From: Methylomonas lenta
Lineage (GTDB): Bacteria; Pseudomonadota; Gammaproteobacteria; Methylococcales; Methylomonadaceae
Length of the DNA: 28,530 bases
Assembly (NCBI RefSeq): GCF_001644015.1
Contig: NZ_LUUI01000119.1
Span: 1-28,530 of the forward strand
Direction of reading: 5' to 3'
The translations under genes were made by a program, and so were the position numbers. The notes under the pieces were generated by a model. That model ran no database searches and was not told the origin of the DNA. It was given only the letters and a program-made list of their open reading frames with translations. Shown here in pieces: positions 2,186 through 27,978 of this stretch (within the stretch, counting starts at the first letter, position 1; each line of letters opens with the position of its first letter).

Positions 2186-2351
2186 TTTTAAAAACCGAAA
2201 AGTGATCGAGCACAAGAAAAACGTCCGTTTATCTTGTACGCTAAAAATCGCCCAAACCAGGCAGTAAAACCACAAGAAAACCCATTGAGAAAATCAACGC
2301 AACATTGTACCCTCATCCTTATCTTTTTTTGTACTGTAAAGTATTGCAAAT
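2186..2351. promoter_or_regulatory. res: Divergent tnpA-tnpR intergenic region, presumed res site and promoters
   Basis: Its position between divergent tnpA and tnpR is where res lies in Tn3-type elements. It contains a repeated TTGTAC motif (about 2233, 2305, 2328). Subsites were not resolved. Confidence 0.35.
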
Positions 2352-2996: not shown

Positions 2997-3051
2997 GCCA
3001 ATGGGTACTGTGAAAAAGTAATAAGCACTCTGAAAGGAGTTTTTAAATTCT

Positions 3052-3987: not shown

Positions 3988-3999
3988 AAGCGGGACTCG

Positions 4000-4356: not shown

Positions 4357-4466
4357 ACTGTGTCATCCTTACCCAGTTAATGTGTGATAAACACATCAAG
4401 AGTGGGTGTTTAATAGTTAAAATCTGATTGTTAAGATTTGTGTGTTTATAGAGTGATTGCGGATGA

Positions 4467-5591
4467 TTAGATGACAGCCTGCCAAAGCAGCCGTATCCCG
4501 ACCGCGAACAAGAACAGCGCAAATATCCTTTTTAGGTTCTCGGTTGGCAACTTATGTGCGAGTTGCGCCCCCATTGGGGCGAATACCCGGCTACTGGTTA
4601 CGATACAGAGAAACGCCGGCACATAGAGATAACCCAGGCTCCAGCCAGGAAGACCGGCGTTGCCCCAGCCCAGGATGATGTAGCCGAGAGAACCGACGAT
4701 AGCGATGGATAATCCACAGGCGCTGGAAACGGCCACGGCTTGGCGCAAGGGAAACTGACGCTTGACCAGGAAAGGGACGATGATGACCCCGATGCCGGCA
4801 CCCAGGAGGGTACAAAGTACGCCGGTAATGCTGCCTGCACCGACAAGGTTTCGGTCGCCAGGCGGCTGGTCAGGATCGAGCGCTGGCGAGTAGGGTTTGA
4901 TCATCTGAAAAGCTACCCATAACGGAAAGAAGGCGAACAGCGTTTTAAAAAGATCGGTCGGCAGGCTGTCCGCGACAACTGAACCCAACAGAGAACCAAC
5001 CAAGACACTTGGCACCAGTTGCTTCACGACCGGCCAGTCAACCGCACCGAGAAGATGGTAAGACTGAAGGGAGGCGGCTGAGGTGATAATGATGGTGGCT
5101 AGTGAAGTCGCCACGGCCATCAGCATGACCAAGTCCGGCGCAATCCCCTGAGCCGAAAAAAGCCATACCAGGAACGGGACAATGATAATGCCACCGCCGA
5201 TGCCGAACAGTCCGGAAAGCAGGCCCGCAACGCTTCCCAAAAGCAGATAGTAAATACTTGGCAAGCCGACCATCGCCAGCGTGATTGTCGCAGTAACCCA
5301 GAACAGTGTCTTATACAGACGCTCGCTTTTAGGCTCTGGGCCAGTCTCGCCAGATTCGTCGGTCTGAACGGATGACTGATAAAGCTTGCTATGGGCAAAT
5401 ACGAGACAATTAACCGCTGTGAAATTAAAGATCGGGCTCAGGAAGTGCAACACCGACAGGTGGCTGATGGCTGCGCTGCCAAAACCGGCCGCCATCAACG
5501 CCAATGGTGTCGTGTTATAAAGGGAAGCCCAATCGCGACCGTGGTATCGCCAGAGATCAACGAGTCCGACTCCGAATTTCACTTGTAACAT
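4467..5591 (-). CDS. TauE/SafE (TSUP) family membrane permease with about 100-aa N-terminal membrane extension (374 aa)
   Basis: Motifs GLLSGLFGIGGGIIIVPFLV and GAGIGVIIVPFLV. SD AAGGAAA lies 6 nt before the ATG at 5591. The gene sits about 100 nt downstream of promoter copy A. Confidence 0.7.
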   Translation of the reverse strand: MLQVKFGVGLVDLWRYHGRDWASLYNTTPLALMAAGFGSAAISHLSVLHFLSPIFNFTAVNCLVFAHSKLYQSSVQTDESGETGPEPKSERLYKTLFWVTATITLAMVGLPSIYYLLLGSVAGLLSGLFGIGGGIIIVPFLVWLFSAQGIAPDLVMLMAVATSLATIIITSAASLQSYHLLGAVDWPVVKQLVPSVLVGSLLGSVVADSLPTDLFKTLFAFFPLWVAFQMIKPYSPALDPDQPPGDRNLVGAGSITGVLCTLLGAGIGVIIVPFLVKRQFPLRQAVAVSSACGLSIAIVGSLGYIILGWGNAGLPGWSLGYLYVPAFLCIVTSSRVFAPMGAQLAHKLPTENLKRIFALFLFAVGIRLLWQAVI

Positions 5592-5687
5592 GGTGTTTTC
5601 CTTATAAAAAAGCAGTCGATAAGGTCATTTCTAATGGGAAACAAACTAATCGACAGCCAAGTTATACCCCCTAAAAGCACGATTGAA

Positions 5688-5719
5688 ATAATAAATGCCG
5701 TACTTAAGAACAGAGTCAA
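5688..5719 (-). promoter_or_regulatory. MerR-type promoter/operator copy A (-35 TTGACT, 20-nt spacer with dyad GTnCTTAAGnAC, -10 TATTAT)
   Basis: Minus strand reads tgCTTGACTCTGTTCTTAAGTACGGCATTTATTATttc. It shares the 14-nt core CTTGACTCTGTTCT with copies at 6245-6276 and 11774-11805. An over-long spacer carrying a dyad is the hallmark of MerR-family activated promoters. Confidence 0.5.
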
Positions 5720-5766
5720 GCAGAAAACTAAAAAAGCTGCGTTTTTATGATATTGGGCAACAGGGC

Positions 5767-6030
5767 CTATTTTTCGTCGGATGAAGACTCCAGGTGTTTT
5801 CTTTTTTCATCCAGTTGTTTTCGTTTTTCTTCTTTTTCTCCTTCATCCAAAAGCCCAAAATCTTCTTCAAAAAGATTAAAACGAAAGCCTATAAACTTAA
5901 GTACGACAAAGGCAATGAGAAAGCCAATAACCGGATAAAAGAATAATTGCGTACCCCAAGGTATGTCGTGCGGGTCTTTCAGGTCAATGCGTAAAATTTT
6001 AGTAAAAACAAAAAACATAAAATCTGTCAT
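5767..6030 (-). CDS. Hypothetical small membrane protein with Glu/Lys-rich C-terminal tail (87 aa from ATG 6030; the track ORF starts at TTG 6060)
   Basis: SD AGGTGG lies 7 nt before ATG 6030. There is one clear TM segment (LFFYPVIGFLIAFVVLKFIGF) and then a charged tail, EEDFGLLDEGEKEEKRKQLDEKRK. No family was recognised. Confidence 0.4.
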   Translation of the reverse strand: MTDFMFFVFTKILRIDLKDPHDIPWGTQLFFYPVIGFLIAFVVLKFIGFRFNLFEEDFGLLDEGEKEEKRKQLDEKRKHLESSSDEK

Positions 6031-6162
6031 TTTATTCCACCTAAAATAGGTTATGAACAACAGTCGCTGATTAAGGTTTAGCCCATGTTGAATTAATCAA
6101 TATGAATGGCTAAATGCATCGCTCAGTCAGAATCCCCAGTGAGATATAAACGCATTTGTTGC

Positions 6163-6210
6163 CGAATAAAAAGAGCCGATTGTTTTTCCTTTTCAGGAAA
6201 AACAATCGGC
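6163..6210 (-). terminator. Rho-independent terminator (16-bp perfect stem, 4-nt loop, T-run on minus strand)
   Basis: 6175-6190 GCCGATTGTTTTTCCT pairs with 6195-6210 AGGAAAAACAATCGGC. On the minus strand the stem is followed by CTCTTTTTATT. Confidence 0.65.
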
Positions 6211-6244
6211 CGGCCACTATGAAGAAATTCAAAGCTCGGTTGAG

Positions 6245-6276
6245 ATCATAAATGACGTACCTTAGAACAGAGTCAA
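6245..6276 (-). promoter_or_regulatory. MerR-type promoter/operator copy B (-35 TTGACT, 20-nt spacer, -10 TATGAT)
   Basis: Minus strand reads cgCTTGACTCTGTTCTAAGGTACGTCATTTATGATctc. It lies between the COG0523 gene stop (6302) and the terminator at 6163-6210. Confidence 0.45.
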
Positions 6277-6301
6277 GCGGAAAATTAACAAAAAGGGTCT
6301 A

Positions 6302-7315
6302 TTAAACCGAGTCCGAACAGCTGTTTGCAATACATTGGTTTAACTCCATCGAAATATCTTGCCGGCTATTTTGTCTGGCGATTATTTCAATCCGGCTGTT
6401 TGCTGAAGGTTTACACGGAACGATAGTCATGACCCCGTCAGCTACATTAAAAATGAACCAACCTTTATCAGTCGCAAAAACCGCTTTTATTCTTTCCGCC
6501 TCCAGTTGGTTTAATAATCGCGTGATGCGTACATAATCAAAGCGACTGTATTCCGGAAATGCAGTGCCAAAACTCCGGTAACCGTCCGCCGCATTTTGCA
6601 GCGGCGAATTCGCTAACGCGCTCTTACGGGACATTCGCCCATTATCCTCATCAATTTGGATCGATCCGGCTTGATGGGCGTTGGGAAAAGAGGCTTGCCT
6701 TTCCGGATTTCTTGTTACGTCCAGCCAAGCAACATCCAGTTGTCCTTGAACGGTTTGAGCAACTACCGCTTTACGGGGACGGCTGCCATCGGCCCAGCGC
6801 TCGAACAACTGAGTCGCTGCCTTGTCGGCTAAATCCATTTTATTGGCGGCCAGCACATCGGATAAGGCGATTTGATCGACAAAGTTTTCATGCGACATGT
6901 AGCGGCTATCGCTTAGCTTTCTCGGGTCAACCAGACAAATACTGGCGCGCACATCCAGCACGGTCCGAAAATACCCGCCGGCAAGCATGTCCAGCACCCG
7001 CTTTGGATGGCCTAAGCCTGTCGGTTCAATAAGCAAACGATCCGGTTTGACTTCCGTTAGCAAACGATTAACGGCAACCTGAAAAGGCAGCCCCACCGCG
7101 CAGCACAGACAACCTCCGGCCACTTCCCTGACACTTGCGCCCGAAGCCGCGAAGATGGCGCCGTCAATGCCGACTTGTCCAAACTCGTTGACCAAGACCG
7201 CCCATTTTTCGTCAGCCGGTTTTTGTTTAAGCAGATTAAGAATGGCCGTGGTTTTACCAACGCCGAGAAACCCCATGACCATATTGGTTGGAATATTGGC
7301 AAACTTTCGGAACAT
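6302..7315 (-). CDS. COG0523 / CobW-family G3E GTPase metallochaperone (337 aa)
   Basis: P-loop GFLGVGKTT, metal-binding GGCLCC (CxCC) motif, EPTGLGHP, and NKMDL (NKxD). Confidence 0.85.
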   Translation of the reverse strand: MFRKFANIPTNMVMGFLGVGKTTAILNLLKQKPADEKWAVLVNEFGQVGIDGAIFAASGASVREVAGGCLCCAVGLPFQVAVNRLLTEVKPDRLLIEPTGLGHPKRVLDMLAGGYFRTVLDVRASICLVDPRKLSDSRYMSHENFVDQIALSDVLAANKMDLADKAATQLFERWADGSRPRKAVVAQTVQGQLDVAWLDVTRNPERQASFPNAHQAGSIQIDEDNGRMSRKSALANSPLQNAADGYRSFGTAFPEYSRFDYVRITRLLNQLEAERIKAVFATDKGWFIFNVADGVMTIVPCKPSANSRIEIIARQNSRQDISMELNQCIANSCSDSV

Positions 7316-7360
7316 TTGGACTTAATCCATAGAGGTATAAAGCTGTAGTGTAGAAACGCT

Positions 7361-7666
7361 CTACAGTTTGATTTTATTAAACGCCAACAGTGCCGCCGTT
7401 AACGACATCAGGAATATCGCCGAAAAAGCCATGACAGCGGTTACCGTATCTGCTGAAAGCAAACTACCCAAAGCTGTCCCGGAAAACAGCATGACCCAAA
7501 AAGCAATATGACAAGGGCAGGCAAGCAGTGCTAAAGACGCAAAACACCAACCGGCTAAACGCCTTCTCGGTGACAGGGGGTGGTCGGAATCGTGTTGTGC
7601 TAAAGAAATTGCACAAGGCTTGCTATCGCACTCGGATAAGTGGCCTATTTTTGAATTTGTTTTCAT
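7361..7666 (-). CDS. merE: MerE-like small membrane mercury transporter (101 aa)
   Basis: Two TM segments, the first carrying LLACPCHIAFW, which matches the MerE LTCPCHLPIL Cys pair. It sits inside the mer cluster. The N-terminal extension is atypical. Confidence 0.5.
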   Translation of the reverse strand: MKTNSKIGHLSECDSKPCAISLAQHDSDHPLSPRRRLAGWCFASLALLACPCHIAFWVMLFSGTALGSLLSADTVTAVMAFSAIFLMSLTAALLAFNKIKL

Positions 7667-8523: not shown

Positions 8524-10597
<2,074 letters not shown>

Positions 10598-13786: not shown

Positions 13787-16700
13787 CTAAGGAAGGATGA
13801 TATTATTTTTTGATGACTGGTTTAGCGGCCTGAGTTGCCCCATCATGATTTGCTCTGCCAGTGTAAATGAGTAGTGCCCTAGCACATTGATATGTCCATG
13901 CAGCAAAGGCGATAGCCTTTTTTCATCTTCTTCTCTAATTTCTTGTGGCTGTTGCCGCAAATGATCCAGCGCTGCTTGCATATATAGGGTGTTCCATAAT
14001 ACGACGGCATTGGTTACCAATCCAAGCGCTCCCAGTTGATCTTCCTGCCCTTCGCGGTAGCGCTTGCGAATTTCTCCCCGTTGTCCATGGCAAATGACGC
14101 GAGCAACCGCATGCCGTCCTTCCCCCCGGTTTAGCTGTGTTAATATCCGCCGGCGGTAATCTTCATCGTCAATATAATTCAGCAGATACAAAGTCTTGTT
14201 GATGCGCCCCGCGTCGATGATGGCTTTAGTCAGACTGGATGGCCGATCACTTTTCAAAAGTGAACGGATAAGCTCTGATGCCTGTATGGTCCCCAGTTTA
14301 AGCGACCCGGCTATCCTCAGCATATCATCCCAGTGCTGTTCTATCCGGCGAGTATTGACAGAACCTCTGGCCAGATCATTGAGCACGCCATAATCCGCAT
14401 GTTTATCGATTCGCCAAAAAACCGCTTCACCGGCATCGGCCAAGCGCGGTGAAAATTGATAGCCAAGCAGCCAGAATAATCCAAACACTAAATCACTGGC
14501 TCCAGCGGTATCCGTCATAATTTCCGTTGGATTCAAGCCGGTCTGTTGCTCTAACAGTCCTTCCAAAACAAAGATAGAATCTCTCAATGTCCCAGGAACG
14601 ACGATGCCGTGGAACCCTGAAAATTGATCCGATAAAAAGTTATACCAAGTAATGCCCTTAGGGAAGTATTTCCTATTTGGCCCGGCATTAATCGTACGCA
14701 CAGGCGTCACCAATCGCATTCCGTCGGCAGAAGCCACTTCACCACCACCCCATTTTTTAGCCAAAGCGAGGGTTGATTGATGATCGACCAATCGGGCATT
14801 GGCCCGAACAAGCGTTTCTGCCCGCAGGTAGTTTTGCTTAACCCAATTCAGGCGATGGCGAGTCAGCGCCGGAATGTGGTGCTTGATTAAGGGTTCCAGT
14901 CCAATATTACAGGCTTCGGCCATGAGTACCGCACAAATACTGACCGATAAATCATTGGCACGAGCATTGGCTTCGCTTACATGCGTAAATTCATCGGCAA
15001 AGCCAGTATGAGTATGGATTTCCAATAGTAACTCGGTAAGATCCACTTTTGGCAATAATCCGGTCACCTGCTCATTGAGCCGAATGAGGCTGGGCGGCTC
15101 ATCCAGTTTATCCAGGTTGGTGATGGTTAAAGCCGGTTGCTTGCCGGAATTGTCAATCTTGACGGCTGCATTATCTGCAAAGTTGGCGGCAACTTGTTTA
15201 TAAGTGGCATCCAGTTGCTGTGTTAAGTTAGTAATTGCCTCATCGGGTTGTACCGGCTGTCCAATCGAGCGACAAACCTGGATTCGGTTTGCTTGCCAAT
15301 TAGCACCTTGCAGCAATTTTGCCCTGGGATCGCCCCAACGATCACTATTTTCAACATAGATATCGCGCCTTCGCAAGGCATCTTGTAATTTGTCGAGAAA
15401 ACACAGTGTGTATCCCCGTTTAGTGACTCGCCCGTCTTTATCAAAAATCAATCGCTTCCACGGAGCGGAAATAATATTCATGGGCGGCTTATCCAAAGTA
15501 TGTTTGCGTGATGTACCAGAAGCGGCAAGATAATTGAATGCAGAAAGCGTCGTTTCCCCGGCGGGCGCGGCCTTGAAAGTAATGTCATTGAGTAGTCGCG
15601 GTAAAAACCGGCAAACCCGACCATACTGCTCAATCAACTCATCATGAAATTTATCGTCATAGGGGCGGGCCAAATCCTGAACGATGGCAATCGATTCGGC
15701 TAATCTCTCTTTAGTGATCTGGGTAAAAATGACATCGCGTAACTGGCCGTCTTGTGTTTCTTCATTCAAAATCAGTGTACAGACATCCGCTAATGTCAGC
15801 GCAGATTTATCCAAATCTTTCAGTGTCCGTAACCGATTTTTCTGACCCATTCTTTTGGCATTACCCGCAATCTCGGTTATGAGTTGATCGAGTACATCCA
15901 AGGCATCATCCAGGGCAATGGTTTCAAAGGCCTTCACAAAAGCCACCAGGATTGCCGTACGCTTGTCCTCTGGCATTCTGGCTATTTTAGGTACCGTGAT
16001 AACACCCGCATGGCGGGCGAGGTTCTTCAATCGAACCGGTGGTATATGGGAAAAATCGATTTCTTGCATACCCAACGCCTTTAATTCAAGATAGCGTTCA
16101 ACGGATGCATTAAAGGCTGGCCCGCTGATGGTTACCGGGCCTTTCTGATAACGATCAAAAGCCGATGATCGTGTGCCTTCTGGCACTTTGAGTAAAGTTT
16201 CCAGTTTGGCTTTTTGCTCAAGTGTTGGTAAAACCGCTAATCGCCGCCACAATCGGTTAACCGCTCTTTCCCTGATTTCGGAAATCAGCCGTGATAAAGT
16301 CGTAGCACCAGGTAGCAGCACCTTGTTTTGATTCAGCCAGGCAGTAGCAAAGTCGAACATTAAGCCGGGTCTTTCGTTGCTGATCCAGGCACGGGTATAA
16401 AGTAACCGGCTAAGACGGAATGCCCAAGGTGGTTCGGTAAATTCGCGGTAGCCATATTGTTCGCGGATAAGCGCGGTGTGTTCGCGTTTAGTGGTATCCC
16501 TTTGGGCGTAATCCGCCAAAATAGCCACATCTCCAATCGAAAGCTGTCCGGCCACAAAGGCTTGGACGTTGGCTGGCACCAACGTTAGATCGGAAAGGAA
16601 GCATCCTAAAAACCTGACGGAAGTTAATTGCAGCGCAAAGCCAAGTCTATTTTGATCGCCACGGCGATTTAAAATGAATGTCAGGTCTGCTTCGTCAAGG

Positions 16701-16792
16701 TGAAAGTACCTTGCCAGTTGGATTTCATCTGGATCACCGGCAAATTGACCGTACTGAGCCTTCTGTTCTGCGGTTAAAAAATCGACGGCCAT
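13787..16792 (-). CDS. tnpA: Tn3-family transposase TnpA (1001 aa), close to Tn3 TnpA
   Basis: MAVDFLTAEQKAQYGQFAGDPDEIQLARYFHLDEAD..., GGGEVASADGMR, LNYIDDEDYRRRILTQLNRGE. It is collinear with Tn3 TnpA over its full length. Confidence 0.97.
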   Translation of the reverse strand: MAVDFLTAEQKAQYGQFAGDPDEIQLARYFHLDEADLTFILNRRGDQNRLGFALQLTSVRFLGCFLSDLTLVPANVQAFVAGQLSIGDVAILADYAQRDTTKREHTALIREQYGYREFTEPPWAFRLSRLLYTRAWISNERPGLMFDFATAWLNQNKVLLPGATTLSRLISEIRERAVNRLWRRLAVLPTLEQKAKLETLLKVPEGTRSSAFDRYQKGPVTISGPAFNASVERYLELKALGMQEIDFSHIPPVRLKNLARHAGVITVPKIARMPEDKRTAILVAFVKAFETIALDDALDVLDQLITEIAGNAKRMGQKNRLRTLKDLDKSALTLADVCTLILNEETQDGQLRDVIFTQITKERLAESIAIVQDLARPYDDKFHDELIEQYGRVCRFLPRLLNDITFKAAPAGETTLSAFNYLAASGTSRKHTLDKPPMNIISAPWKRLIFDKDGRVTKRGYTLCFLDKLQDALRRRDIYVENSDRWGDPRAKLLQGANWQANRIQVCRSIGQPVQPDEAITNLTQQLDATYKQVAANFADNAAVKIDNSGKQPALTITNLDKLDEPPSLIRLNEQVTGLLPKVDLTELLLEIHTHTGFADEFTHVSEANARANDLSVSICAVLMAEACNIGLEPLIKHHIPALTRHRLNWVKQNYLRAETLVRANARLVDHQSTLALAKKWGGGEVASADGMRLVTPVRTINAGPNRKYFPKGITWYNFLSDQFSGFHGIVVPGTLRDSIFVLEGLLEQQTGLNPTEIMTDTAGASDLVFGLFWLLGYQFSPRLADAGEAVFWRIDKHADYGVLNDLARGSVNTRRIEQHWDDMLRIAGSLKLGTIQASELIRSLLKSDRPSSLTKAIIDAGRINKTLYLLNYIDDEDYRRRILTQLNRGEGRHAVARVICHGQRGEIRKRYREGQEDQLGALGLVTNAVVLWNTLYMQAALDHLRQQPQEIREEDEKRLSPLLHGHINVLGHYSFTLAEQIMMGQLRPLNQSSKNNIILP

Positions 16793-17392: not shown

Positions 17393-20300
17393 TTAAAGGT
17401 CGCTACCTTCTTCCACAGACTTACGCCAGAAATCAGGATCGTTATATCGTGCCGCCAACGCATCGATGTCAACCTTGGCGTTTTCTTCCGTAAATTCAAA
17501 CTTACCGATCAGATTCACATTTTGCCAGGCGACGGGCGACGTGCCTTTGATGATCTCGATAGCATCCTGGTCGCCGGTCGCCAGTTTTTGCTCATACACC
17601 CGCGACAAGATTAGCGTGTTGTAGTGGATGATGGCGTTGGCAATAAGCCGGGAACAATCGTTCCAGATTTGCTGCTCCGCTTCGGTTTTTACCCGGAATT
17701 TGCCGGCATTGACATAGGAAATGGCTCGTCGCATGCGATGATACGCCTCGCCGCGATTAAGCGCCTTTTGGATGCGCTGCCTGAGTATCGGGTCATCGAT
17801 GAAATCAAGGATATGAAGTGACCGATAAATATTGTCCAATTCCCATAGCGCCTTCTTGGTCTGGTTCTGCCGCTTATAACTGGCGAGCTTACGCACGATG
17901 GTTGCTTGAGTCACATCTTTTTGTGCAAGCGAAGCCAGAATGCGCTGGATATTCGGCCACTCCTTGCATATTAAGGTATCAAAGACCTTACGCGATGGCT
18001 TAAACAAGGCATCGCCATAACGGCTTGGGTGCTGGAACCCAACCAGGCTATCGATCTTTTTATGCAGGTCACGATAACGTGGCGAAAATTGGTAGCCGAA
18101 GACGCGCAAGATAAAGAAATTCACTTGATTGGTGCCATGCGTGTCCGTCGAATGCCTTTCCGGCTTGATCTCCGTTGTATTGTTGTACAGGATGTCGAAC
18201 ACGAAATGTGATTCGTGTTCGTGCGCACCGATAATTTTGGCATTAATCGGGACATGATTCATGGCCAAGGTAATGGAGTTTACGCCTTTCTTTAGCGCGA
18301 AAAACTTGCTGGAGTGTCGGGCATTGATCGTGTCGATCTGCGTGACTATATGCTGGCCGTCACTGCTAGAATGCTTCTGGTGGTGGATGTCGTACGCTTG
18401 GAAAACGGGTAACGCAGCCGTAGCGTTGGAAATGACGTCATTCGCTGCATGCAGCGTTTCCGCCCGCAGGAAATTGCGCGCCGTCGTCAGCAACGCAGAA
18501 TGACTAAGCCCTGAGACTTCCGCCATTTTCCATAAACCCATATTGGTACCCATGGCAACGATACAGGCCAGGATCAGTTTCGGATCGGCATCTTGTTTAA
18601 CGTAGCGTTCCAAAACGTGGGCAAATGATTTCAAGAATCCTGTTCTTTCAGCGACAAACCAAAGCAGGTCGGCCACGCCGATACTTGGCAATTGAGCATA
18701 GAAAGGACTGTTGGTTGGCTCTTCCTCGGAGGGATAAACCAACGTCCAGCGAAGCTTGTCCCCGCTACCGGTGATTTTGATATGTTTATTGTCGCCGCTT
18801 TCAATGCGCTGGTTCACTGATTTGTACTTGGCTTCCAGTTCCCGCTTGAGCGCGGCTAACGTATCCTGGATTGGTGTCAACAGAATCGGTGCGCCGATTT
18901 CTTGCAATATCGCGTCTCTATCCTTATTCCAGCGCTCGGTGTTGATCAGGTCGTCATCAAAGCTGCGAAATTCATTACTGTCCCGAACAAATACGTCACA
19001 GGCTTCAAGCGCCTTCCGTAGCTCGCGGTATACCAGGAACTCATAGCGATCAACCTCCAGGGTTTTCTTTTTTTGTTCTTCCGTCCGGGTATATAAATAC
19101 CGTTGCAAATTCTTTGCGATGATTCCGGTCGGGAAGTTGGCCGGGTTCATTTGTCGTGGTGTCTTGCCCTGGCGCAGCAGCTCCTGTAGAAACAAAATGG
19201 ATTCCAACAGTGGTTCATCCGACACCAGGCAGACGAAATCGAGGTTGCAGAACAAATGTCGTAAATTGAGCTTGAATTTGTGACGTAGCGTGCCGTAATA
19301 CGACCATTCAAAAGCGGTTTTATCGAATTCGATGTTACGCATAAAACCGGATACGACTGGAAAGCTCTCAATGTTGAGTAGCTCGAAAGCCTTTTCCTTG
19401 ATGGCCGCAAACGGTGTTTCGTCAGGGATGGAATTGTCGATGAACAGTTCCAGAACTTGGCCTGCCGCCTGTAGATTCGCGCCAGCCTCGTTGATGGCTT
19501 GCTGCATGGCCTCGTCGGCGGCAAGTTTGGCTTGTTTCTCGTATTGGCCAATGAGACAAATCAGGGCTTCGATCAAATTATCGTTGATTTGCCGAAAGCG
19601 ATGAAAGGCGAAGCACAGCAAATACAGGCGTGTCGTGGGTTCCGCCATGCGCCGCAGCTTGTAGACGGAGTAGAACGGAACCAATGATGCATAGTATTTT
19701 ATACTCTCATTGGACAGGCCGGCAGTACCCAGAAAGCTTTGCCCGAATTCATACAGCGGCTGAAAAAATTTGCGGCGGTCAACCTCCTGGCGTAACTCGC
19801 GGTAACTGAAATCCTTAGGCTCGTGTTTGAGTAGGCTGATGCGATACATGCCTTCCTCGGACTCAAGCAAGGCTTCGAGCTGCTTGTCGACATCCGGCGT
19901 CATGGCTTTTTTCAGTAAGTCCGTAATCCGCCGACGTTCACCAGTCACTACTCGGCTCACCATGTCCTGTAGATAAGTGTAGCCAGGAGCAATTAGGCGT
20001 TGGTTAGTAAGGTATTGTAAGGTTTCGCGTAGGATGTAAATCGGCTGTGTCGACAGCATGGCGACGCGCTGCGCTTTCTGTTCCAGTGCCGCCTTGGCTG
20101 TGCTGTCACATAGGCGGGAGTCGAATAACTGGAGGATAAGCTGCTGTTGTTCGAGCCGGGTCGGCTTGGAAAGGGTTTTGATCTTATCTAATGCCTGATC
20201 AGGGAAATACCGCTGGAGAATATAGTGTAGATCGTCGAGCACGGCCTCCCGCCCGTAAACAAAGAACTGTTGCTTGGCCTTGAAATACCCGATTTGAAGG

Positions 20301-20470
20301 ATTAAATGGACGGCCGATGAGCGGGTATGAATGGCATCGACGGCTTTCTGTTCAACCGCGCTTAAATCGAAGAAGAGACAACGGTCATCGTCGCTGAAAC
20401 AAGGCAACCCGTAAAGATCATCGATTTCACTTTTCGTCAGGATAGACAGGCGACGCGAATTGACACTCAT
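17393..20470 (-). CDS. tnpA: Tn3-family transposase TnpA (1025 aa)
   Basis: The N-terminal DUF4158-like region reads LTKSEIDDLYGLPCFSDDDRCLFFDLS. The C-terminal DDE_Tnp_Tn3 motifs are SSSDGQH..., STDTHGTNQVNF, and ILDFIDDPILRQRIQKALNRGEAYH. The gene ends 15 nt from the IR. Confidence 0.95.
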   Translation of the reverse strand: MSVNSRRLSILTKSEIDDLYGLPCFSDDDRCLFFDLSAVEQKAVDAIHTRSSAVHLILQIGYFKAKQQFFVYGREAVLDDLHYILQRYFPDQALDKIKTLSKPTRLEQQQLILQLFDSRLCDSTAKAALEQKAQRVAMLSTQPIYILRETLQYLTNQRLIAPGYTYLQDMVSRVVTGERRRITDLLKKAMTPDVDKQLEALLESEEGMYRISLLKHEPKDFSYRELRQEVDRRKFFQPLYEFGQSFLGTAGLSNESIKYYASLVPFYSVYKLRRMAEPTTRLYLLCFAFHRFRQINDNLIEALICLIGQYEKQAKLAADEAMQQAINEAGANLQAAGQVLELFIDNSIPDETPFAAIKEKAFELLNIESFPVVSGFMRNIEFDKTAFEWSYYGTLRHKFKLNLRHLFCNLDFVCLVSDEPLLESILFLQELLRQGKTPRQMNPANFPTGIIAKNLQRYLYTRTEEQKKKTLEVDRYEFLVYRELRKALEACDVFVRDSNEFRSFDDDLINTERWNKDRDAILQEIGAPILLTPIQDTLAALKRELEAKYKSVNQRIESGDNKHIKITGSGDKLRWTLVYPSEEEPTNSPFYAQLPSIGVADLLWFVAERTGFLKSFAHVLERYVKQDADPKLILACIVAMGTNMGLWKMAEVSGLSHSALLTTARNFLRAETLHAANDVISNATAALPVFQAYDIHHQKHSSSDGQHIVTQIDTINARHSSKFFALKKGVNSITLAMNHVPINAKIIGAHEHESHFVFDILYNNTTEIKPERHSTDTHGTNQVNFFILRVFGYQFSPRYRDLHKKIDSLVGFQHPSRYGDALFKPSRKVFDTLICKEWPNIQRILASLAQKDVTQATIVRKLASYKRQNQTKKALWELDNIYRSLHILDFIDDPILRQRIQKALNRGEAYHRMRRAISYVNAGKFRVKTEAEQQIWNDCSRLIANAIIHYNTLILSRVYEQKLATGDQDAIEIIKGTSPVAWQNVNLIGKFEFTEENAKVDIDALAARYNDPDFWRKSVEEGSDL

Positions 20471-21693: not shown

Positions 21694-22044
21694 ATGAATC
21701 TTCTGGAAAAGTCAGACGAAGAAATTTTCAATGAGATAACCCCCATCATGGATAATATGATGGAAGGTTCCACTGAAATTAATCATGCTAAGCATACTCG
21801 TGACTTTACAGATAGGATGAAAGCCATTGTCACCCCGGAAAATCTTCAAATCATGTGTAAGGACTACCAGGCAAGGTGGGGTTTATTTGGTAAGCGAGAG
21901 TTTGTCGCCCTGTTTAGACGTAAGCATTCGATAGCAGTGGTCTGGAAACAATATTGCTCCAATTCGACAGATGAGCATGTTGCCGAGGCGGTGTTCGTCG
22001 AACATGATAATCGTTTGCTGATAGATCATGCTATGGTCTATTAA
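21694..22044 (+). CDS. Hypothetical protein (116 aa from ATG 21694 with SD AAGGGA; the track ORF starts at 21649)
   Basis: Complete ORF between the Cys-rich gene and the methyltransferase gene, on the same strand. No family was recognised. Confidence 0.4.
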   Translation: MNLLEKSDEEIFNEITPIMDNMMEGSTEINHAKHTRDFTDRMKAIVTPENLQIMCKDYQARWGLFGKREFVALFRRKHSIAVVWKQYCSNSTDEHVAEAVFVEHDNRLLIDHAMVY

Positions 22045-22074
22045 ATTTATAACAATACGGTTTCAGAGTGGCTT

Positions 22075-22561
22075 GTGAGTTTAATGGTTATTGCCGGAAC
22101 TGAAGGGTATACCGAGAGCGCCGATTCTCTAATCGCACGGTACGAGAGAGTTTCGTTTGCCGAGAAATACGAGTCTGTCTTTCACTTGATGCCAGAAAAG
22201 ACAAGCGATGTTTTGGACATCGGTGCGGGCACAGAAGCCGATGCTGCTTGGTTCGCGGCGGCGGGACTCGGGTGCTCGCCGTTGAGCCAACGGATCGCCT
22301 TCGAGATTCTGCGAAAGCGATTCACCCATCGCCGCTGATCGAGTGGGTTGCCGATAGCCTTCCCTATCTACGAAAGCTAATTTCCCTTGGACAAAGCTTT
22401 GACCTTGTACTCTTGACTGCGGCATGGATGCACCTAACCCGGCAAGAACGTCAGAAAGCAATGCCCAACGTCGCCGCATTGCTCAAAGTAGATGGAGTTC
22501 TGCTTATGTCGCTTCGGCATGGGCCTGTTCCAGAAAATCGGAGAATGTTCCATGTATCAGT
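22075..22561 (+). pseudogene. Class I SAM-dependent methyltransferase, 5' part; frameshifted near 22266-22268 and interrupted at 22561 by the 5-kb element
   Basis: SAM motif VLDIGAGTEADAAWFAAAG in frame A, then RVLAVEPTD...FDLVLLTAAWMHL...LLMSLRHGPVPENRRMFHVS in frame B (ORFs 22075..22338 and 22248..22613). The reading frame resumes at 27581 (VDYTILLAEREGLRNTLSIEVQSAQ*). Confidence 0.85.
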
Positions 22562-22660
22562 TGCATATTCCACACCAAACCAGCCACCCATTCCGATTGA
22601 AATCCGCCACTGATTCTGATTCAAACCCGGCCATCAATTCCGACACGATTACGCCAGAAG
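22562..22660 (+). repeat. Left-end array of four 23-24-bp putative transposase-binding repeats
   Basis: The units start at 22562, 22590, 22613 and 22637: TGCATATTCCACACCAAACCAGCCACCC / ATTCCGATTGAAATCCGCCACTG / ATTCTGATTCAAACCCGGCCATCA / ATTCCGACACGATTACGCCAGAAG. The consensus is ATTCCGAT-n4-AAAYCCGCCA. Confidence 0.8.
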
Positions 22661-22893
22661 TGAATGTTGGCTGTTGTGAAGGCTAACTGGTGCTGTCGAC
22701 CCTTTCCCGCCATACACCTTTCTCCAAAGCGGCCGAATGCCCAAGTATTGTTTTTTGGGTTTCGCTTCTACAAAGCAGCCTTTCGTGGTCTCCGGCAGCC
22801 GGCCATCACCGGAAACTCGGGTCGGTAGGATGAGTATCTGGTCAAAGCCTTTCTCAGTGCATGGCAAAACACATCCGTCCGGATTGCGAGGAA

Positions 22894-22921
22894 ATATACG
22901 AAACGTATATAATTCGTATAT
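22894..22921 (+). promoter_or_regulatory. Operator-like repeats upstream of the ParD-like gene
   Basis: ATATACG-aaa-CGTATAT-aatt-CGTATAT combines an inverted and a direct repeat of a 7-mer. It lies 22-49 nt before the ATG at 22943. Confidence 0.35.
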
Positions 22922-22942
22922 GTTTCATATGCGAGGTCGCTG

Positions 22943-23197
22943 ATGGGTATTGTAAAAATTTCGGAACAGATGCACGAGAACCTGCGCGTGGCGGGGAACG
23001 CGCTAAGCAGATCAATCAATGCCCAGGCCGAACACTGGATGCGAGTCGGCATGTTGACCGAGCTACACCCAGAGCTGGACTATAGGGAAATCTGCCAACT
23101 TTTGATACGGGCTGAACTGGCGGGAGGACTAGACATCGCCGGCGCAGTAACAGGACAACTTGGCAAGACCGATACATTCACGGCCGAAAAACACTGA
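22943..23197 (+). CDS. ParD-like (ribbon-helix-helix type) antitoxin-family protein (84 aa)
   Basis: MGIVKISEQMHENLRVAGNALSRSINAQAEHWMRVG matches the remembered signature of the ParD_like family. Its stop overlaps the map start (TGATG). Confidence 0.55.
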   Translation: MGIVKISEQMHENLRVAGNALSRSINAQAEHWMRVGMLTELHPELDYREICQLLIRAELAGGLDIAGAVTGQLGKTDTFTAEKH

Positions 23198-23988
23198 TGG
23201 CCCACGGCGTTTCCATCAAGTCGGTTGAGGAGCTCGAAATGACGCGCCGGGCCGGACGACTCGCCGCTGAGGTTCTCAGCATGGTTGAGGCATACGTGGC
23301 GCCCGGCGTGAGCACAGAGACGCTCGACCAAATCTGCCACGAGCACATCGTGAATGTCCAGGGCGCCATTCCAGCCAACGTCGGGTATCACGGGTATCCC
23401 AAGACTATTCTTACCTCCGTCAACCAGGTGGTTTGTCACGGCATTCCCTCAGCCGACAAGATTCTGAAGAAGGGCGACATCATCAACATTGATGTCGCCG
23501 TCATCAAGGATGGCTGGTTCGGCGACACCAGTCGCATGTACTTTGTCGGCGTCCCCAGTGTGTTGGCTCGGCGCTTGGTGGAGACGACATACGAAGCATT
23601 GCTGGCCGGAATCCGGCAGGTTAAGCCGGGAGCCACTCTTGGCGATATTGGCCACGCAATCCAGTCGGTTGCTCAACGAGAACATTTCAGCGTAGTACGC
23701 GAATACTGCGGACACGGCATTGGGCAGGTCTACCACGATGAACCTAAAGTGCTTCACTACGGACGGCGCGGGGAAGGGCTCAAACTGGAGCCGGGGATGG
23801 TATTCACCATTGAGCCGATGCTCAATGCAGGCAAACGCGAAACCAAGGAATTGCCTGACGGATGGACAGTCGTGACAAAGGACAGGTCGCTATCCGCCCA
23901 GTGGGAGCACATGGTGGCGGTAACGCCTTCCGGGTATGAAGTGCTTACCCCTTGGACGGGCGCCACAGTTTCATACGCAGCGGTTTGA
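23197..23988 (+). CDS. map: Type I methionine aminopeptidase (263 aa)
   Basis: All five metal ligands are in conserved contexts: NIDV, GDTSRM, CGHGIG, FTIEPM and SAQWEHMVAVT. It is collinear with E. coli Map. Confidence 0.95.
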   Translation: MAHGVSIKSVEELEMTRRAGRLAAEVLSMVEAYVAPGVSTETLDQICHEHIVNVQGAIPANVGYHGYPKTILTSVNQVVCHGIPSADKILKKGDIINIDVAVIKDGWFGDTSRMYFVGVPSVLARRLVETTYEALLAGIRQVKPGATLGDIGHAIQSVAQREHFSVVREYCGHGIGQVYHDEPKVLHYGRRGEGLKLEPGMVFTIEPMLNAGKRETKELPDGWTVVTKDRSLSAQWEHMVAVTPSGYEVLTPWTGATVSYAAV

Positions 23989-24382
23989 CACTCAACCAGG
24001 GTGTGGTTTGGCTTTAGGCAGTTGTTCCTTGTGGGCTGGCAACCACGGTTTCAAGTCTTGCATTGCTCAACTTGCAGCCACAATTGAATGTCCGCATCCG
24101 CTGCGATACTGGCCCTACAGAATACTGAGTTGAATGTCGCTTGAGGTCGTCGGCGACCGTCTTCTCTTCAGACTCATCGCCGGAAAGCGGTCAATAAAAT
24201 TCCGATTCCCGAAAGCGGCCAGTCGTCACTGAGTGCAGCCGACCCGTTGCAGACATTCGGATATGAATTTAAACTTCCCAATAGCGGTCATTGGCAAAGT
24301 AGCACTATCGATTCATTATGCCGGCCTTGCCTAGTGTTCTTCATTGTACGCCGGGTTTTTAGCATAGGTGTATTATGAGATG

Positions 24383-24877
24383 TCAGTCTTCCATCTGTTC
24401 TAATTCTTCAGCAAATTCGTTTATTTCATTTGCAATTGATTCCATTTTTTCAATCATGCTTCTTCTTACTTCTGGTCCTTGGCCCTCTATCTTTATTTTA
24501 AAAATTTCAATTTGTGCTTGCATTGAGGCTGTTTTTATCTGCCCTATATTTATACTATTTGCATATTCTTGAGCTTTAACTTGGGCGTTCAACTCTGCTC
24601 TTGATGCTTTCATTTCATCCCTTTGCAGTTTAAGTTCTTTACGTTGTAGATAGATTGTGTAAATGATACCTGCAAATGCTAAACCGCTAAATAATGCGTT
24701 TATAGAGCCGAAAAGGTCGCCGAATTGGCCGCGTGATGGCCAATCAGGTAAGTTATTGAATACACTCCACCACATTATCCCCCAAAGAATAATAGCCCCA
24801 ACAACTAACCATATTAGCAATGAAATGCTTTCTTCTTTATTTTGATTTTCCGACATGTTTTTTCCTTTTTTAGACAT
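24383..24877 (-). CDS. 2-TM membrane protein with C-terminal coiled coil (164 aa; alternative ATG at 24856 has SD AAGGA), reminiscent of putAbiC-type abortive-infection proteins
   Basis: TM1 is ISLLIWLVVGAIILWGIMWWSVF. The motif GQFGDLFGSINALFSGLAFAGIIYTIYLQRKELKLQRDEM follows, and then heptad-rich sequence. It lies 107 nt downstream of thsB on the same strand. Confidence 0.45.
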   Translation of the reverse strand: MSKKGKNMSENQNKEESISLLIWLVVGAIILWGIMWWSVFNNLPDWPSRGQFGDLFGSINALFSGLAFAGIIYTIYLQRKELKLQRDEMKASRAELNAQVKAQEYANSINIGQIKTASMQAQIEIFKIKIEGQGPEVRRSMIEKMESIANEINEFAEELEQMED

Positions 24878-24984
24878 GTTGAGGTACGAACCCCAACACT
24901 TTCTGGTTCCGATCTGTTAGGCTTCCTTGCGTGAGCTCAATCTACTGCACTAAAGCTGGTAGGAGGATTACCCGCTGAATTGAG

Positions 24985-25587
24985 CTACCGCCCGGCCAGA
25001 TCTGCGGCTAATTCTATCCATCCGGCTATGTTTTTTCGTCCGTCTTGGGCTATGAAATCGTAACGTTCACAGTGCTTCGAAAGCGTGACCACCTGCTTGC
25101 TTGTCGGAGCATCGAACCACAGGTCGCTTTCAGGAATAGGGCGCGTGTAGTCGCTGTACTTTACCCATTTATCCCCGTTCTTCTCGGCGAAGTAAATTCC
25201 GTTTTCTGTTTTGTACAACCCGATGCAAGTAAGCGGGTCCACTCCTTTGGTACAGGTTTTACCATCCTTATTTTCAACTTTGTTAATGTCTACGGTCAGT
25301 AACCCGTTCCCCTTCAACACACTTTGGACAATTTCATACCTAACCCAACGCCTAGCCGACGTCTCGGCACCAGCGAGTATGCAAGTGACTGAAGTATTCT
25401 TTAGTCCATTTCTAAGGAAAGTTTTAAGATTATCTTCGCTTTCTTTCTTGGAAGCCTCGAAGACGCTACTGTCGAAAAAGCCGTCGGTAAACAGCCCTTC
25501 AGGTTTCACAACTCCACAGTTTCGTACGTTCCAAACTCTCCAATTGTCTGGTGTATAGTGAAACGAGAAAAAAGTTCTTCTAGCCAT
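24985..25587 (-). CDS. thsB: Thoeris ThsB, TIR-like (DUF1863-type) domain protein (200 aa)
   Basis: MARRTFFSFHY...VRN...NTSVTCILAGAETSARRWVRYEI parallels Bacillus ThsB (MAKRVFFSFHY...NTSVTCVLIGSQTFNRRWVRYEI). It lies directly downstream of thsA. Confidence 0.85.
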   Translation of the reverse strand: MARRTFFSFHYTPDNWRVWNVRNCGVVKPEGLFTDGFFDSSVFEASKKESEDNLKTFLRNGLKNTSVTCILAGAETSARRWVRYEIVQSVLKGNGLLTVDINKVENKDGKTCTKGVDPLTCIGLYKTENGIYFAEKNGDKWVKYSDYTRPIPESDLWFDAPTSKQVVTLSKHCERYDFIAQDGRKNIAGWIELAADLAGR

Positions 25588-25648
25588 TTGGTATGTTCCT
25601 TATTAAAAAAAGTAAAAATGTAAGGGTGAAATTGATCAAGTGATCGCC

Positions 25649-27079
25649 TTATTTGTTCAGCTTCTTGATGAGCTGTACTAGTTTTTGAACTAACTCGGCG
25701 TTGGGTGTTGTCGGGTTCGACAATTCTGCTACGAGAGGTTCGACCCATTTGATGCCCTTATAGTGCTTATCGGGGGCGTCTATGACCGTCTCATATATTG
25801 TCTTCGAGGCATAACCGGTAGCTCCAACTGGGATCACGACTACTCCTTTCTGTACAGCGATTTCGAACTCCCTAATGACACCGTTTGCCTCGACTACCTC
25901 ACCGTCAACAAGTTTGTTGCCAAAAACGAAAATAGCTATGCCAGCCAGCGAGATCATTCGCTGTCTATACTCTTCCCATAGCTGCTGCAAGTCTTGAGAA
26001 CTGCTCGCAAATTGTGGGAAAGGGCGCATCACGAGCTGGTCCTCGGATAATTTTTCAGGATTTGAGTAAATTGCCTCAAGCGCACCGTTTATAACCGCGC
26101 TCCCGATACCCCATCCAAAACCGTTTACGACTCTGAAACCTTCACGTACAAGGCCAGCGGTCAATGTATGAACAAAAGTTTGGCCTTCCTGTCTAGACAA
26201 GTTACCAAACTCCTCAGCGCTTCCTGAAATAAACACAGTTTTCTTCCGAAAACGTGTTTCGATTTCTTTTAGGATACAGGGAATTTCTACGTAATCATCT
26301 ATGAGCAGCGTCTGGATTCCAAAGCGTTTGAGGTCGTCTACCCGGAGTTCTTGTTTGCGCTGCTTGTACTTCGTGACTTCATCGTCATCTCCGATCTGTA
26401 CTATCTCTCGTCGCAAGAAGCAGTAGTGCTGTCGCATCGGTTGGTTGACGTAAAGTCTACTAAGAACATAATCCAGGTTCGGATCTGTAAAGCTAAAACC
26501 AATGAAAAGAAAAGTTTTCGCGACGAGATCCCCGCTTAGAGCTGTTACGAACGGAGAGTGCGTCTGATAATATCGTTCATATTGTTGCTTATAGATTACA
26601 GCTTCATTTGCGACTGTGACATCGCCATGCATTTTGTAGACAACTGCGTCCCGTTTCGGACGAGTCGTATTCAATTGGCTAACACTATGCTTGATATCGG
26701 CCACTTTATAGGCACGTTTCAAGGCATCTTCAATTAGGCTGTCATAATTCGTAGTCCAGTATGTTCCGATAGGTAAGCGTGAAAGTATTTCATGGGTTTC
26801 CGATGGCTCTGCCTGTTCGGAAAATTCCTGTAGTATCTTTTTCGCGAGTCCTGCGCTGCTTTTCCGTTCGTTCACATGGAACTGGGTCAATGAAATCAGG
26901 TCGTGTTCATTTTCAACTTTAAGCCCCAATTCGTCTGCGATGTCCCTGAGCAGTTCGGGCCAATCTACATAGCCGCAACTCTTGGACATTCCGGCACCAG
27001 CGAAAACTGCTACATTGTTTTCTTCTAAGTCTTTGACAAAATCTTTGATAAAAGCTTCGATCTCTCGGCTAAAAGTCAT
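25649..27079 (-). CDS. thsA: Thoeris ThsA, N-terminal SIR2 NADase plus C-terminal SLOG signal-binding domain (476 aa)
   Basis: FAGAGMS, YWTTNYDSLIE, DAVVYKMHGD and FLFIGFSFTDPNLDYVLSR form the SIR2 part. TVFISGSAEEF...VVNGFGWGIGSAVINGALE...VIPVGATGYA is the SLOG Rossmann-like part. It is collinear with B. cereus MSX-D12 ThsA as recalled. Confidence 0.9.
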   Translation of the reverse strand: MTFSREIEAFIKDFVKDLEENNVAVFAGAGMSKSCGYVDWPELLRDIADELGLKVENEHDLISLTQFHVNERKSSAGLAKKILQEFSEQAEPSETHEILSRLPIGTYWTTNYDSLIEDALKRAYKVADIKHSVSQLNTTRPKRDAVVYKMHGDVTVANEAVIYKQQYERYYQTHSPFVTALSGDLVAKTFLFIGFSFTDPNLDYVLSRLYVNQPMRQHYCFLRREIVQIGDDDEVTKYKQRKQELRVDDLKRFGIQTLLIDDYVEIPCILKEIETRFRKKTVFISGSAEEFGNLSRQEGQTFVHTLTAGLVREGFRVVNGFGWGIGSAVINGALEAIYSNPEKLSEDQLVMRPFPQFASSSQDLQQLWEEYRQRMISLAGIAIFVFGNKLVDGEVVEANGVIREFEIAVQKGVVVIPVGATGYASKTIYETVIDAPDKHYKGIKWVEPLVAELSNPTTPNAELVQKLVQLIKKLNK

Positions 27080-27502
27080 ATGGATTGATTTTTTAAAAAA
27101 TTAATATGGATTAATGAATCGAGTTTGTATCACCTAAAAAGATGCTGCTCGAATTATTTGATTTTATACCGCTAAATGCTACGACTAAAATTTAAATGCA
27201 TGTGAGCATTCGCTTAATGGCTTCAATATGTAAGGTGCAACAAGTACCTGGTGGAATCTGCGGAATCCAGCGCGTAGGTTGGGCTGACGCAGAAAACCCA
27301 ACGGGAATCGGAACCGAAAAGTGTTGGTTTTCATTCTGTCATATTCATCACCATAAAGCGGCCATTCGTGACAGGCAGAAATTGGCCGGATCGAGCCAAA
27401 GAGGACGCAAGGTTGCTTGCCGAAAAGCGGTCATTCGCTGAACTTAGGGATGGAAAATTTCGCCGGCGCCCTCAACGGCCGGTTATGGCCGGTCGGCGCC
27501 AC

Positions 27503-27573
27503 TGGCGGGTTTCGATTGGAATTCCTGGCGGGTTTGACATCGGAATCGGTGGCGGATTTCATTGGAATACGCA
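27503..27573 (-). repeat. Right-end array of three 22-24-bp putative transposase-binding repeats (inverted relative to the left array)
   Basis: The plus strand reads TGGCGGGTTTCGATTGGAATTCC (27503-27525), TGGCGGGTTTGACATCGGAATCGG (27526-27549) and TGGCGGATTTCATTGGAATACGCA (27550-27573, the terminus). Confidence 0.8.
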
Positions 27574-27656
27574 TATCAGTCGACTATACAATCCTGCTTG
27601 CCGAACGGGAAGGTCTGCGCAACACTCTAAGCATCGAAGTACAGTCTGCCCAGTAA
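27574..27656 (+). pseudogene. Methyltransferase 3' fragment (includes the right TSD copy at 27574-27580)
   Basis: Joining ...TTC CAT GTA TCA GT (22561) to C GAC TAT ACA... (27581) gives FHVSVDYTILLAEREGLRNTLSIEVQSAQ*. Confidence 0.85.
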
Positions 27657-27757
27657 TCAATCGCCAAGCCGGTGTAACGTGGTCATGGCTTGCCTTCAGC
27701 AAAAGTTACGCCTAGCCCTTCATTAAGGTGATTGACGATCTCTATAAGTGTTCTCTG

Positions 27758-27793
27758 ATTTTTACCTTTTCGAGGGGATGGGCAAAAATAGCC
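27758..27793 (-). repeat. Right terminal IR of the nested Tn3-family transposon
   Basis: Exact reverse complement of 17342-17377, followed by the TSD copy AACGT at 27794-27798. Confidence 0.93.
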
Positions 27794-27978
27794 AACGTAC
27801 TAATGAAGGCCGCATCGAGGCCAAGGCCAAGGGAGTGAAGTTTGGTCGCAAACGCACTATCGATACCGAAAAACTAAGGACATTACGTAAGAATGGTCTA
27901 GGCGCTACCGATATTGCCAAGCAAATGGGCATTGGGCGGTCAACCGTTTACAAATTGCTGAATGAAACGGATGAGTGA
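27794..27978 (+). pseudogene. tnpR: Tn3-type resolvase tnpR, 3' fragment (HTH domain)
   Basis: [59 protein letters not shown] continues the fragment at 16967-17341. Compare Tn3 TnpR ...[23 protein letters not shown].... Confidence 0.9.

Follow-up and report, generated by a model that had tools for sequence, protein, structure and literature searches.

The 28,530-nucleotide stretch of Methylomonas lenta DNA analyzed here (contig NZ_LUUI01000119.1, positions 1–28,530, called the window below) carries a discrete 5,012-bp insert at positions 22562–27573, which lies within the gene of a class I S-adenosylmethionine (SAM)-dependent methyltransferase. The insert is probably a non-autonomous derivative of an IS21-family insertion sequence (IS), in other words a mobile insertion cassette, which would have been moved in trans by the IstA and IstB proteins of a co-resident relative. 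Since a defense cargo and multi-repeat TG/CA ends are found together without a transposase, ATPase, or recombinase gene, mobilization in trans is the most economical reading of the element. The original prediction for this stretch had already described a non-autonomous element with a defense cargo, and a Thoeris system was indeed found between ends that enclose no transposase gene.

The insertion and its empty site

The target gene is split into a 5′ part (22075–22561, plus strand) and a 3′ part (27581–27656, plus strand), and the insert between them is flanked by TATCAGT as a 7-bp duplication, with one copy at 22555–22561 and the other at 27574–27580. When window positions 22000–22561 are fused to 27581–27800, the junction is free of gaps and the joined sequence shows 95% DNA identity to an uninterrupted methyltransferase gene on a plasmid of Methylomonas sp. 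LL1 (NZ_CP064652.1), where TATCGGT occurs once at the intact empty site. At the protein level, the fused frame aligns through the junction with the intact homolog of 204 amino acids (aa). It had been predicted that the methyltransferase reading frame breaks at 22561 and resumes in frame at 27581, with 5,012 bp bracketed by 7-bp TATCAGT repeats; joining the halves in silico and searching for an empty site, both of which had been proposed, agree with this to the nucleotide. The 7-bp duplication of the target and the empty site confirm that the insert is a genuine transposition product.

Compared with the LL1 homolog, the methyltransferase gene of the window has two 1-bp indels (at ~22268 and ~27650) that cause frameshifts and are independent of the insertion. 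Either the gene is a pseudogene three times over, or these indels are sequencing errors. The gene order is alike in the window and on the LL1 plasmid, where a Tn3-family transposase gene, a resolvase gene, and two small open reading frames (ORFs) precede the methyltransferase gene in this order. Because the neighborhood is the same in both, the target gene is a passenger that a Tn3-family transposon carries on a plasmid of the Methylomonas type.

Terminal repeats and the IS21 family

The termini of the element are 5′-TG...CA-3′. It starts with TGCATATTCCA and ends with TGGAATACGCA, which match as inverted repeats in 10 of 11 positions. The left terminal inverted repeat (22562–22659, plus strand) consists of TGCATATTCC and four units of the form ATTCC-N-AAAYC-GCCA, which start at 22567, 22590, 22613, and 22637 (spacings of 23, 23, and 24 bp), and its equivalent in the autonomous relative described below is the istB-proximal end. 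The right terminal inverted repeat (27492–27573, minus strand) contains TGCGTATTCC and three minus-strand units that start at 27568, 27546, and 27522 (spacings of 22 and 24 bp); its counterpart is the istA-distal end of that relative. The predicted TG/CA ends with four left and three right units in inverted orientation were thus found, at measured spacings of 22–24 bp. In the window, the pattern of terminus plus first unit matches at these two ends only, with 0.00 matches expected from 100 shuffles.

Of the autonomous relatives, the closest is a 7,066-bp istAB element present in three metagenome loci (L125, L135, and L147). The copies in L125 (7227–14292, in reverse-complement orientation) and L135 (175–7240) are 100% identical, and their flanks are different. 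Between its two ends, the element carries an FlhE-like gene, four small ORFs including helix-turn-helix (HTH) regulators, istA, and istB, in this order. By Pfam, the istA product contains rve and Mu-transpos_C_2 domains and the istB product an IstB_IS21 domain; the IstA protein is 98% identical to IstA of a Methylomonas sp. DH-1 plasmid. The left end of the window element shows 83% identity over 82 nt to the istB-adjacent end of the 7,066-bp element, with 40 of the outermost 41 nt identical, and for the right end and its counterpart the identity is 80% over 82 nt. Homology between the two elements is confined to the outer 82 nt of each end. The contigs with the 7,066-bp element join flanks of different insertions. 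For each of the two left flanks, there is nevertheless a right flank among the six that is identical over 7 nt and no further (GCCAAAC and CGGATAG). Given that the chance of one such match in the 12 flank comparisons is estimated at ~7e-4, the 7,066-bp element is understood to make 7-bp duplications like the window element.

The search for an autonomous relative that had been proposed (blastn of the terminal 130–140 nt against plasmids) led to the istAB genes of the DH-1 plasmid. Here, the left end of the window element matches the sequence directly downstream of the annotated istB (82% over 82 nt), and the right end matches a second end located 18 kb upstream of istA. The resulting structure of 20.7 kb, istAB included, has no flanking duplication and was thereby ruled out as a simple insertion; for this reason it was used for its istAB and end sequences only. 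An end of the 7,066-bp type is found in strain DH-1 as well as in M. koyamae and M. aurea, where its neighbors are the genes of a giant Ca-binding protein and of a type I secretion system.

Related ends occur well beyond these elements. A scan of a species-representative genome collection with a degenerate pattern (terminus plus one unit) delivered 98 stretches from many phyla (L004–L101), and tblastn found IstA and/or IstB in 51 of them; a narrower end pattern gave 39 metagenome loci, six of which contain IstA/IstB. Wherever related ends adjoin a transposase in these loci, which were searched with IstA/IstB only, it is IstA (rve and Mu-transpos_C_2) together with IstB (IstB_IS21), and the Prokaryotic Genome Annotation Pipeline (PGAP) places the proteins in the IS21 family. 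Canonical complete istAB copies measure 2.5–2.9 kb and are flanked by 5- or 6-bp duplications. ISPpu7, a named IS21 member, has the same end design, a 6-bp duplication, and an IstA ~50% identical to that of the nearest autonomous relative. In the IS21 family, target duplications range from 4 to 8 bp.

Biochemically, the family is known from a study of IS5376, in which the terminal repeats of IS21 elements are described as direct repeats 23 bp apart (PMC10122671). IstA of IS5376 requires two complete repeats per end and the terminal 3′ CA, an IstA tetramer occupies two ends, IstB is required, and the ends alone suffice to make DNA a competent substrate in vitro; the target duplication of IS5376 is 5 bp (PMC10122671). 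The window element has TG...CA termini, at least two repeats ~23 bp apart at each end, a short duplication, and ends homologous to those that flank istAB, as is expected of an IS21 derivative; the IstA (HTH and DDE) and IstB (AAA+) of an autonomous IS21 element are missing from it. Because related ends adjoin IstA/IstB, the spacing fits 23 bp, and the nearest istAB relative gives 7-bp duplications, the element is on sequence grounds a member of the IS21 family, as a derivative rather than as an autonomous IS.

Five candidate groups had been named originally (Tn7, Mu, Tn5053, Tn552, and IS21-type transposons), with a lean toward Tn552-like elements and the view that no named family could be assigned. 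The IS21 option was retained and the Tn552 lean was not, as the transposase beside related ends is IstA/IstB, and the element can now be placed as an IS21-family mobile insertion cassette. An element of the Tn552, Tn7, Tn5053, or Mu type would be moved by a TnsB/TniA/p480 transposase with a TnsC/TniB-type ATPase. Such elements likewise have TG/CA termini with arrays of ~20-bp transposase-binding sites and pair a DDE transposase with an AAA+ regulator, the Mu-transposase C-terminal domain of IstA indicates that the architectures are related, and a TniA fragment and TniB adjoin the empty site on the LL1 plasmid. However, the matched region does not include this remnant, nothing equivalent is present in the window, and the 7-bp duplication differs from the 5 bp of Tn7, Tn5053, and Mu. 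In addition, the four types belong to other transposase families, while every transposase found beside related ends is IstA/IstB. The assignment to one of these types was ruled out on this last finding, which comes from loci searched for IstA/IstB and not for TnsB/TniA-type genes, and we regard it as most improbable.

The transposase-less lineage and its mobilization

Pfam identified no transposase, ATPase, or recombinase gene among the five ORFs of the element. Traces of istA or istB were likewise absent from the element, including its non-coding parts, in six-frame tblastn and blastx searches even at E ≤5, in line with the earlier remark that no such ORF is present inside. The absence of these genes could be explained by decay in situ, in which an autonomous IS21 transposon with passengers inserted and later lost istA and istB through deletion or cargo replacement, leaving a dead relic. 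Autonomous relatives do carry passengers between one end and istA, and cargo replacement between fixed ends is evident in the lineage. The left sub-terminal module (22637–22741, plus strand) speaks against decay. It consists of a variant fourth unit, CGAyAyGATTACGCCAG, followed by TGAATG, GCTTTTGGA, and TCGACCC and then by CTCCAAAGCGGCC, and an alignment shows it to be common to the window element and 17 other transposase-less elements with differing cargo. In the autonomous 7,066-bp element the module is absent, and the istB terminator stands in its place. Because its left end carries this module, the window element would descend from a lineage that was already transposase-less. This lineage is present at many sites and includes one complete member with its own duplication, which together with the lack of any istA/istB trace makes decay in situ rather unlikely.

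Unrelated cargo accompanies this left-end module in L008/L129, L064, L074, L093/L141, L131, L126, L120, L151, and other loci, and tblastn detected no IstA/IstB in these relatives, of which up to 13 kb of interior was available. The cargo comprises methanol:corrinoid methyltransferase genes (MtaB, a B12-binding protein, and RACo) in L008/L129, an M78 peptidase and a PycTM-like effector in L064, an efflux system in L074, WD40 and TPR proteins in L093/L141, ABC-3C components in L131, an autotransporter in L126, and a WYL regulator, GmrSD, and an FtsK-gamma/tubulin-like protein in L120. The complete member is found in L120 and measures 5,890 bp (1484–7373), with both ends, a 5-bp duplication, and no istAB. 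Paired inverted termini elsewhere, for which a search had been suggested, are therefore represented, for example, by L120 and the 7,066-bp element. As these relatives share the ends and lack istAB, the window element belongs to a wider set of cargo cassettes that derive from IS21 elements in Methylococcales.

Two further observations concern these ends. A 1,612-bp segment (L134 4435–6046, equal to L144 2251–3862) has IS21-type ends on both sides, a single 467-aa ORF without a match, and no flanking duplication. On Methylomonas plasmids, several ends of this IS21 lineage are separated by only a few hundred bp from genes for resolvases or Tn3-family transposases (L113 15001–15035, L114 15001–15082, and L002 2254), which may reflect a target preference or the mere crowding of mobile DNA.

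For the window element, trans-mobilization would proceed as follows. The cassette kept its ends as two arrays of ~20-bp putative IstA-type binding units, 22–24 bp apart, with the passengers between them. IstA and its AAA+ helper IstB would come from an autonomous relative present in the same cell; the candidate helper is the 7,066-bp istAB family of Methylomonas plasmids and metagenomes. IstA would bind the outer units of both ends, synapse them, and cleave at the 3′ CA, whereupon the cassette would integrate into the methyltransferase gene within the Tn3-family transposon through a 7-bp staggered cut. Both the action of IstA/IstB in trans and the element that supplied them are what we infer from the ends and the cargo.

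Several points weigh against this reading. A second copy of the exact 5,012-bp element, which had also been proposed as a search, was not found in plasmids, genomes, metagenomes, or viral contigs, so the mobilization of the transposase-less form is deduced from a single insertion, and decay in situ stays the main rival of trans-mobilization. In the plasmid megablast, matches were limited to the flanks and to the ParD/Map genes. No match was obtained when the exact ThsA and Map proteins were looked up, and look-ups of ThsB returned only short contigs that match 24330–26744 and are bounded by other IS ends. Viral contigs contained no ends of the window type, and their ThsA relatives were ≤70% identical. 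The 28.5-kb window itself contains no istAB, although a helper is supposed to have been co-resident. The right end is just 80% identical to the end of the candidate helper, and cross-recognition is thus a prediction from sequence; since the sub-terminal modules of the lineage are absent from the known autonomous element, the true cognate helper may be unsampled. Finally, the canonical relatives have duplications of 5–6 bp and the cassette in L120 one of 5 bp, compared with 7 bp here.

The exchange of cargo within the lineage is best visible at a chromosomal DUF1614/P-type ATPase locus, where the same flank and a 94-nt end module are followed by at least five differing interiors (L120, L123, L137, L118, and L150 = L151). 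L120 and L151 (356–1485), in which both ends are visible, have an identical 5-bp duplication, and this suggests cargo replacement between fixed ends. In the window element, recurring non-coding sequence adds to this picture. The right sub-terminal module (27331–27491, plus strand, ~160 nt) contains two AGCGGYCATTCG motifs at 27357 and 27426, and stretches that are 83–88% identical to it are present in L008 and between genes on three Methylococcales plasmids. The copies (L008 4639–4756, L109 4001–4161, and L110 4001–4110) are non-coding stretches of ~125–160 nt, and the plasmids with the module include those of Methylotuvimicrobium alcaliphilum and Methylomonas. An internal non-coding stretch between the cargo blocks (24168–24300, plus strand) has a weak similarity to the right module and contains AGCGGYCAKTSG at 24214 and 24283. 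Altogether, the AGCGGYCAKTSG motif is found four times in non-coding DNA of the element (24214, 24283, 27357, and 27426). These copies form two pairs with an internal distance of 69 bp, of which one lies between the ParD/Map and Thoeris blocks and the other within the right module. The motif is also present in a related cassette, where it is found at a boundary of the cargo (L150 3742 and L151 454). Its enrichment in the window is marginal (five observed versus 1.06 expected, reached by two of 100 shuffles), and with hints this weak a role as junction module between cargo blocks is a lead only.

Other explanations of the conserved non-coding DNA were examined and rejected. A general host repetitive extragenic palindromic (REP) sequence was ruled out for the AGCGGYCATTCG motif, which is absent from ~100 kb of Methylomonas plasmid loci. 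An RNA was ruled out as well: the modules gave no Rfam match at E ≤1, no consensus fold, and no compensatory change, with no conserved fold detected in the left module and no covariation in the right one. Predicted promoters and terminators did not exceed the shuffle expectation.

Recombination was considered as a way in which the element could have arisen, either through exchange of cargo between pre-existing ends or through a recombinase that acts on the repeated AGCGGYCATTCG motifs. The locus with the same ends and duplication around at least five interiors and the recurrence of a short motif at cargo boundaries fit such a process. However, the element encodes no recombinase, the motif enrichment is marginal, and recombination could account for the assembly of the cargo, not for the arrival of the element at its site; the ends came by insertion with duplication, because the LL1 empty site has none. 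As an explanation of the insert as a whole, recombination is very unlikely. It is a more speculative and, in our estimation, still unlikely proposal that transposase-less IS21 ends form a cassette platform of methanotrophs, which swaps cargo, much of it defense-related, between fixed landing-pad end modules. Such a platform would consist of putative IstA sites, the lineage-specific sub-terminal module, and the recurring AGCGGYCATTCG motif at cargo junctions. If true, it would explain the at least five interiors with the same ends and duplication at one chromosomal locus as well as the two cargo blocks of the window element, each with a copy of the junction motif behind it, and it would amount to an integron-like shuffling of genes that has no integrase of its own and rides on IstA/IstB.

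Cargo, surroundings, and comparison with known systems

The five real ORFs of the element were assigned by Pfam to ParD_like, Peptidase_M24 (Map), ThsB_TIR, and SIR2_2 plus STALD (ThsA), with one 164-aa protein left unmatched. ThsA (25649–27079, minus strand) is a full-length protein with SIR2 and SLOG/STALD domains and matches PADLOC ThsA1 at E 2.2e-202, its residues 3–476 being covered by the 478-position model. ThsB (24985–25587, minus strand) is a TIR-like protein of type I Thoeris (Pfam ThsB_TIR E 6.8e-22, PADLOC ThsB1 E 1.6e-54). By homology, ThsA (SIR2 plus SLOG) beside the TIR-domain protein ThsB constitutes a complete type I Thoeris system with a predicted anti-phage role. The unmatched protein (24383–24877, minus strand) is a predicted membrane protein with two transmembrane segments (2-TM) located beside thsB, and its gene is co-linear with ThsB on metagenome contigs. 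The remaining two genes encode a ParD-like ribbon-helix-helix protein of 84 aa (22943–23197, plus strand, Pfam ParD_like E 4.5e-31) and a type I methionine aminopeptidase paralog, Map, of 263 aa (23197–23988, plus strand, Peptidase_M24 E 3.3e-52). The cargo is as it was first read, namely ParD-like/Map, a 2-TM protein, and Thoeris, with a family match for all genes but that of the 2-TM protein.

The ParD-like and Map genes form a conserved two-gene module that is found at 85% on a Polaromonas naphthalenivorans plasmid and at 79% on an Ideonella plasmid. The pair has no PADLOC match and may be an addiction or defense module. Part of the Thoeris block also occurs outside the element, as the metagenome contigs L102–L108 are 99.3% identical to window positions 24330–26744 (the 3′ part of thsA, thsB, and the membrane protein gene). 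They diverge exactly at 26744 and 24330, and their thsA is cut to 366 aa; on one side lies an apparent multi-repeat IS end (TGTCAACAGC... with repeated TGACCCACC) and on the other the start of a presumed IS256-like transposase.

The DNA around the methyltransferase gene (window 1–21228 and 27748–27978) is a mosaic of mobile DNA with several resolvase genes. It contains a mer operon, with merA at 8891–10582 on the minus strand and small ORFs beside it that are interpreted as mer genes. Two Tn3-family transposase genes (13787–16792 and 17393–20470) are present as well, and a C-terminal resolvase fragment falls in a segment that a Nitrosomonas plasmid matches at 100% identity. Window positions 1–760 are 86% identical to a part of L124, another part of which holds an end of the 7,066-bp element.

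How defense systems move between genomes is an active question. Documented vehicles are mostly prophages, satellites, integrative elements, Tn7-like transposons, and integrons. A complete Thoeris system between bare IS21-type ends, caught beside an empty site, offers a clean and directly testable case. If IstA and IstB act in trans, very common ISs would become helpers for multi-gene cargo that has no transposase signature, and such cargo would escape annotation pipelines keyed on transposase genes. Recent structural studies of IstA/IstB could also draw on the cassettes as naturally occurring mini-IS21 substrates. The principle itself is unsurprising to a specialist, and the value lies in a clean example, a defined candidate helper, and a lineage with diverse cargo. 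For transposase-less IS21-type cassettes, with or without a defense cargo, the searchable literature yielded no description, a scope that does not extend to ISfinder and TnCentral.

Among known systems, the window element resembles the 7,066-bp element and its 20.7-kb version, which have homologous ends, a Methylococcales setting, passengers, and, in the case of the 7,066-bp element, 7-bp duplications. Unlike the window element, they encode IstA and IstB and lack the GATTACGCCAG...TCGACCC module; their passengers are the FlhE-like gene and HTH regulators and, in DH-1, the type I secretion system with its giant Ca-binding protein. The IS21-family ISs (IS21, IS5376, IS1491, ISPpu7, and ISPsy14) share the TG...CA termini, the multi-repeat ends with units ~23 bp apart, and the short duplications. 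In contrast to these named ISs, the IstA of which is only ~50% identical to that of the nearest autonomous relative, the window element has no istA or istB and carries 5 kb of unrelated passengers as well as extra conserved sub-terminal modules. IS21-family elements that have passengers and their own istAB are known (PMC13139386). Among them, the blaOXA-1054 module also ties IS21 machinery to a passenger gene in several contexts, but it retains istA/istB, carries a resistance gene, and is not a transposase-less cassette (PMC13139386).

The window element itself has IS-type inverted repeats around passengers, no transposase gene, and a duplication typical of the parent IS, and is therein like a mobile insertion cassette. 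In MIC231 of Bacillus cereus, the inverted repeats of an IS reportedly enclose passengers that replace the transposase, and the cassette is said to be moved in trans. Mobile insertion cassettes are an established class of non-autonomous IS derivatives with passenger genes, and in the qnrS2 cassette of Aeromonas plasmids, IS inverted repeats likewise surround a passenger instead of a transposase, with movement thought to occur in trans (PMC4444841). Both MIC231 and the qnrS2 cassette derive from single-transposase ISs with simple inverted repeats, whereas the window element combines multi-site IS21 ends, which would need a two-protein machinery, with a multi-gene defense system and a second module.

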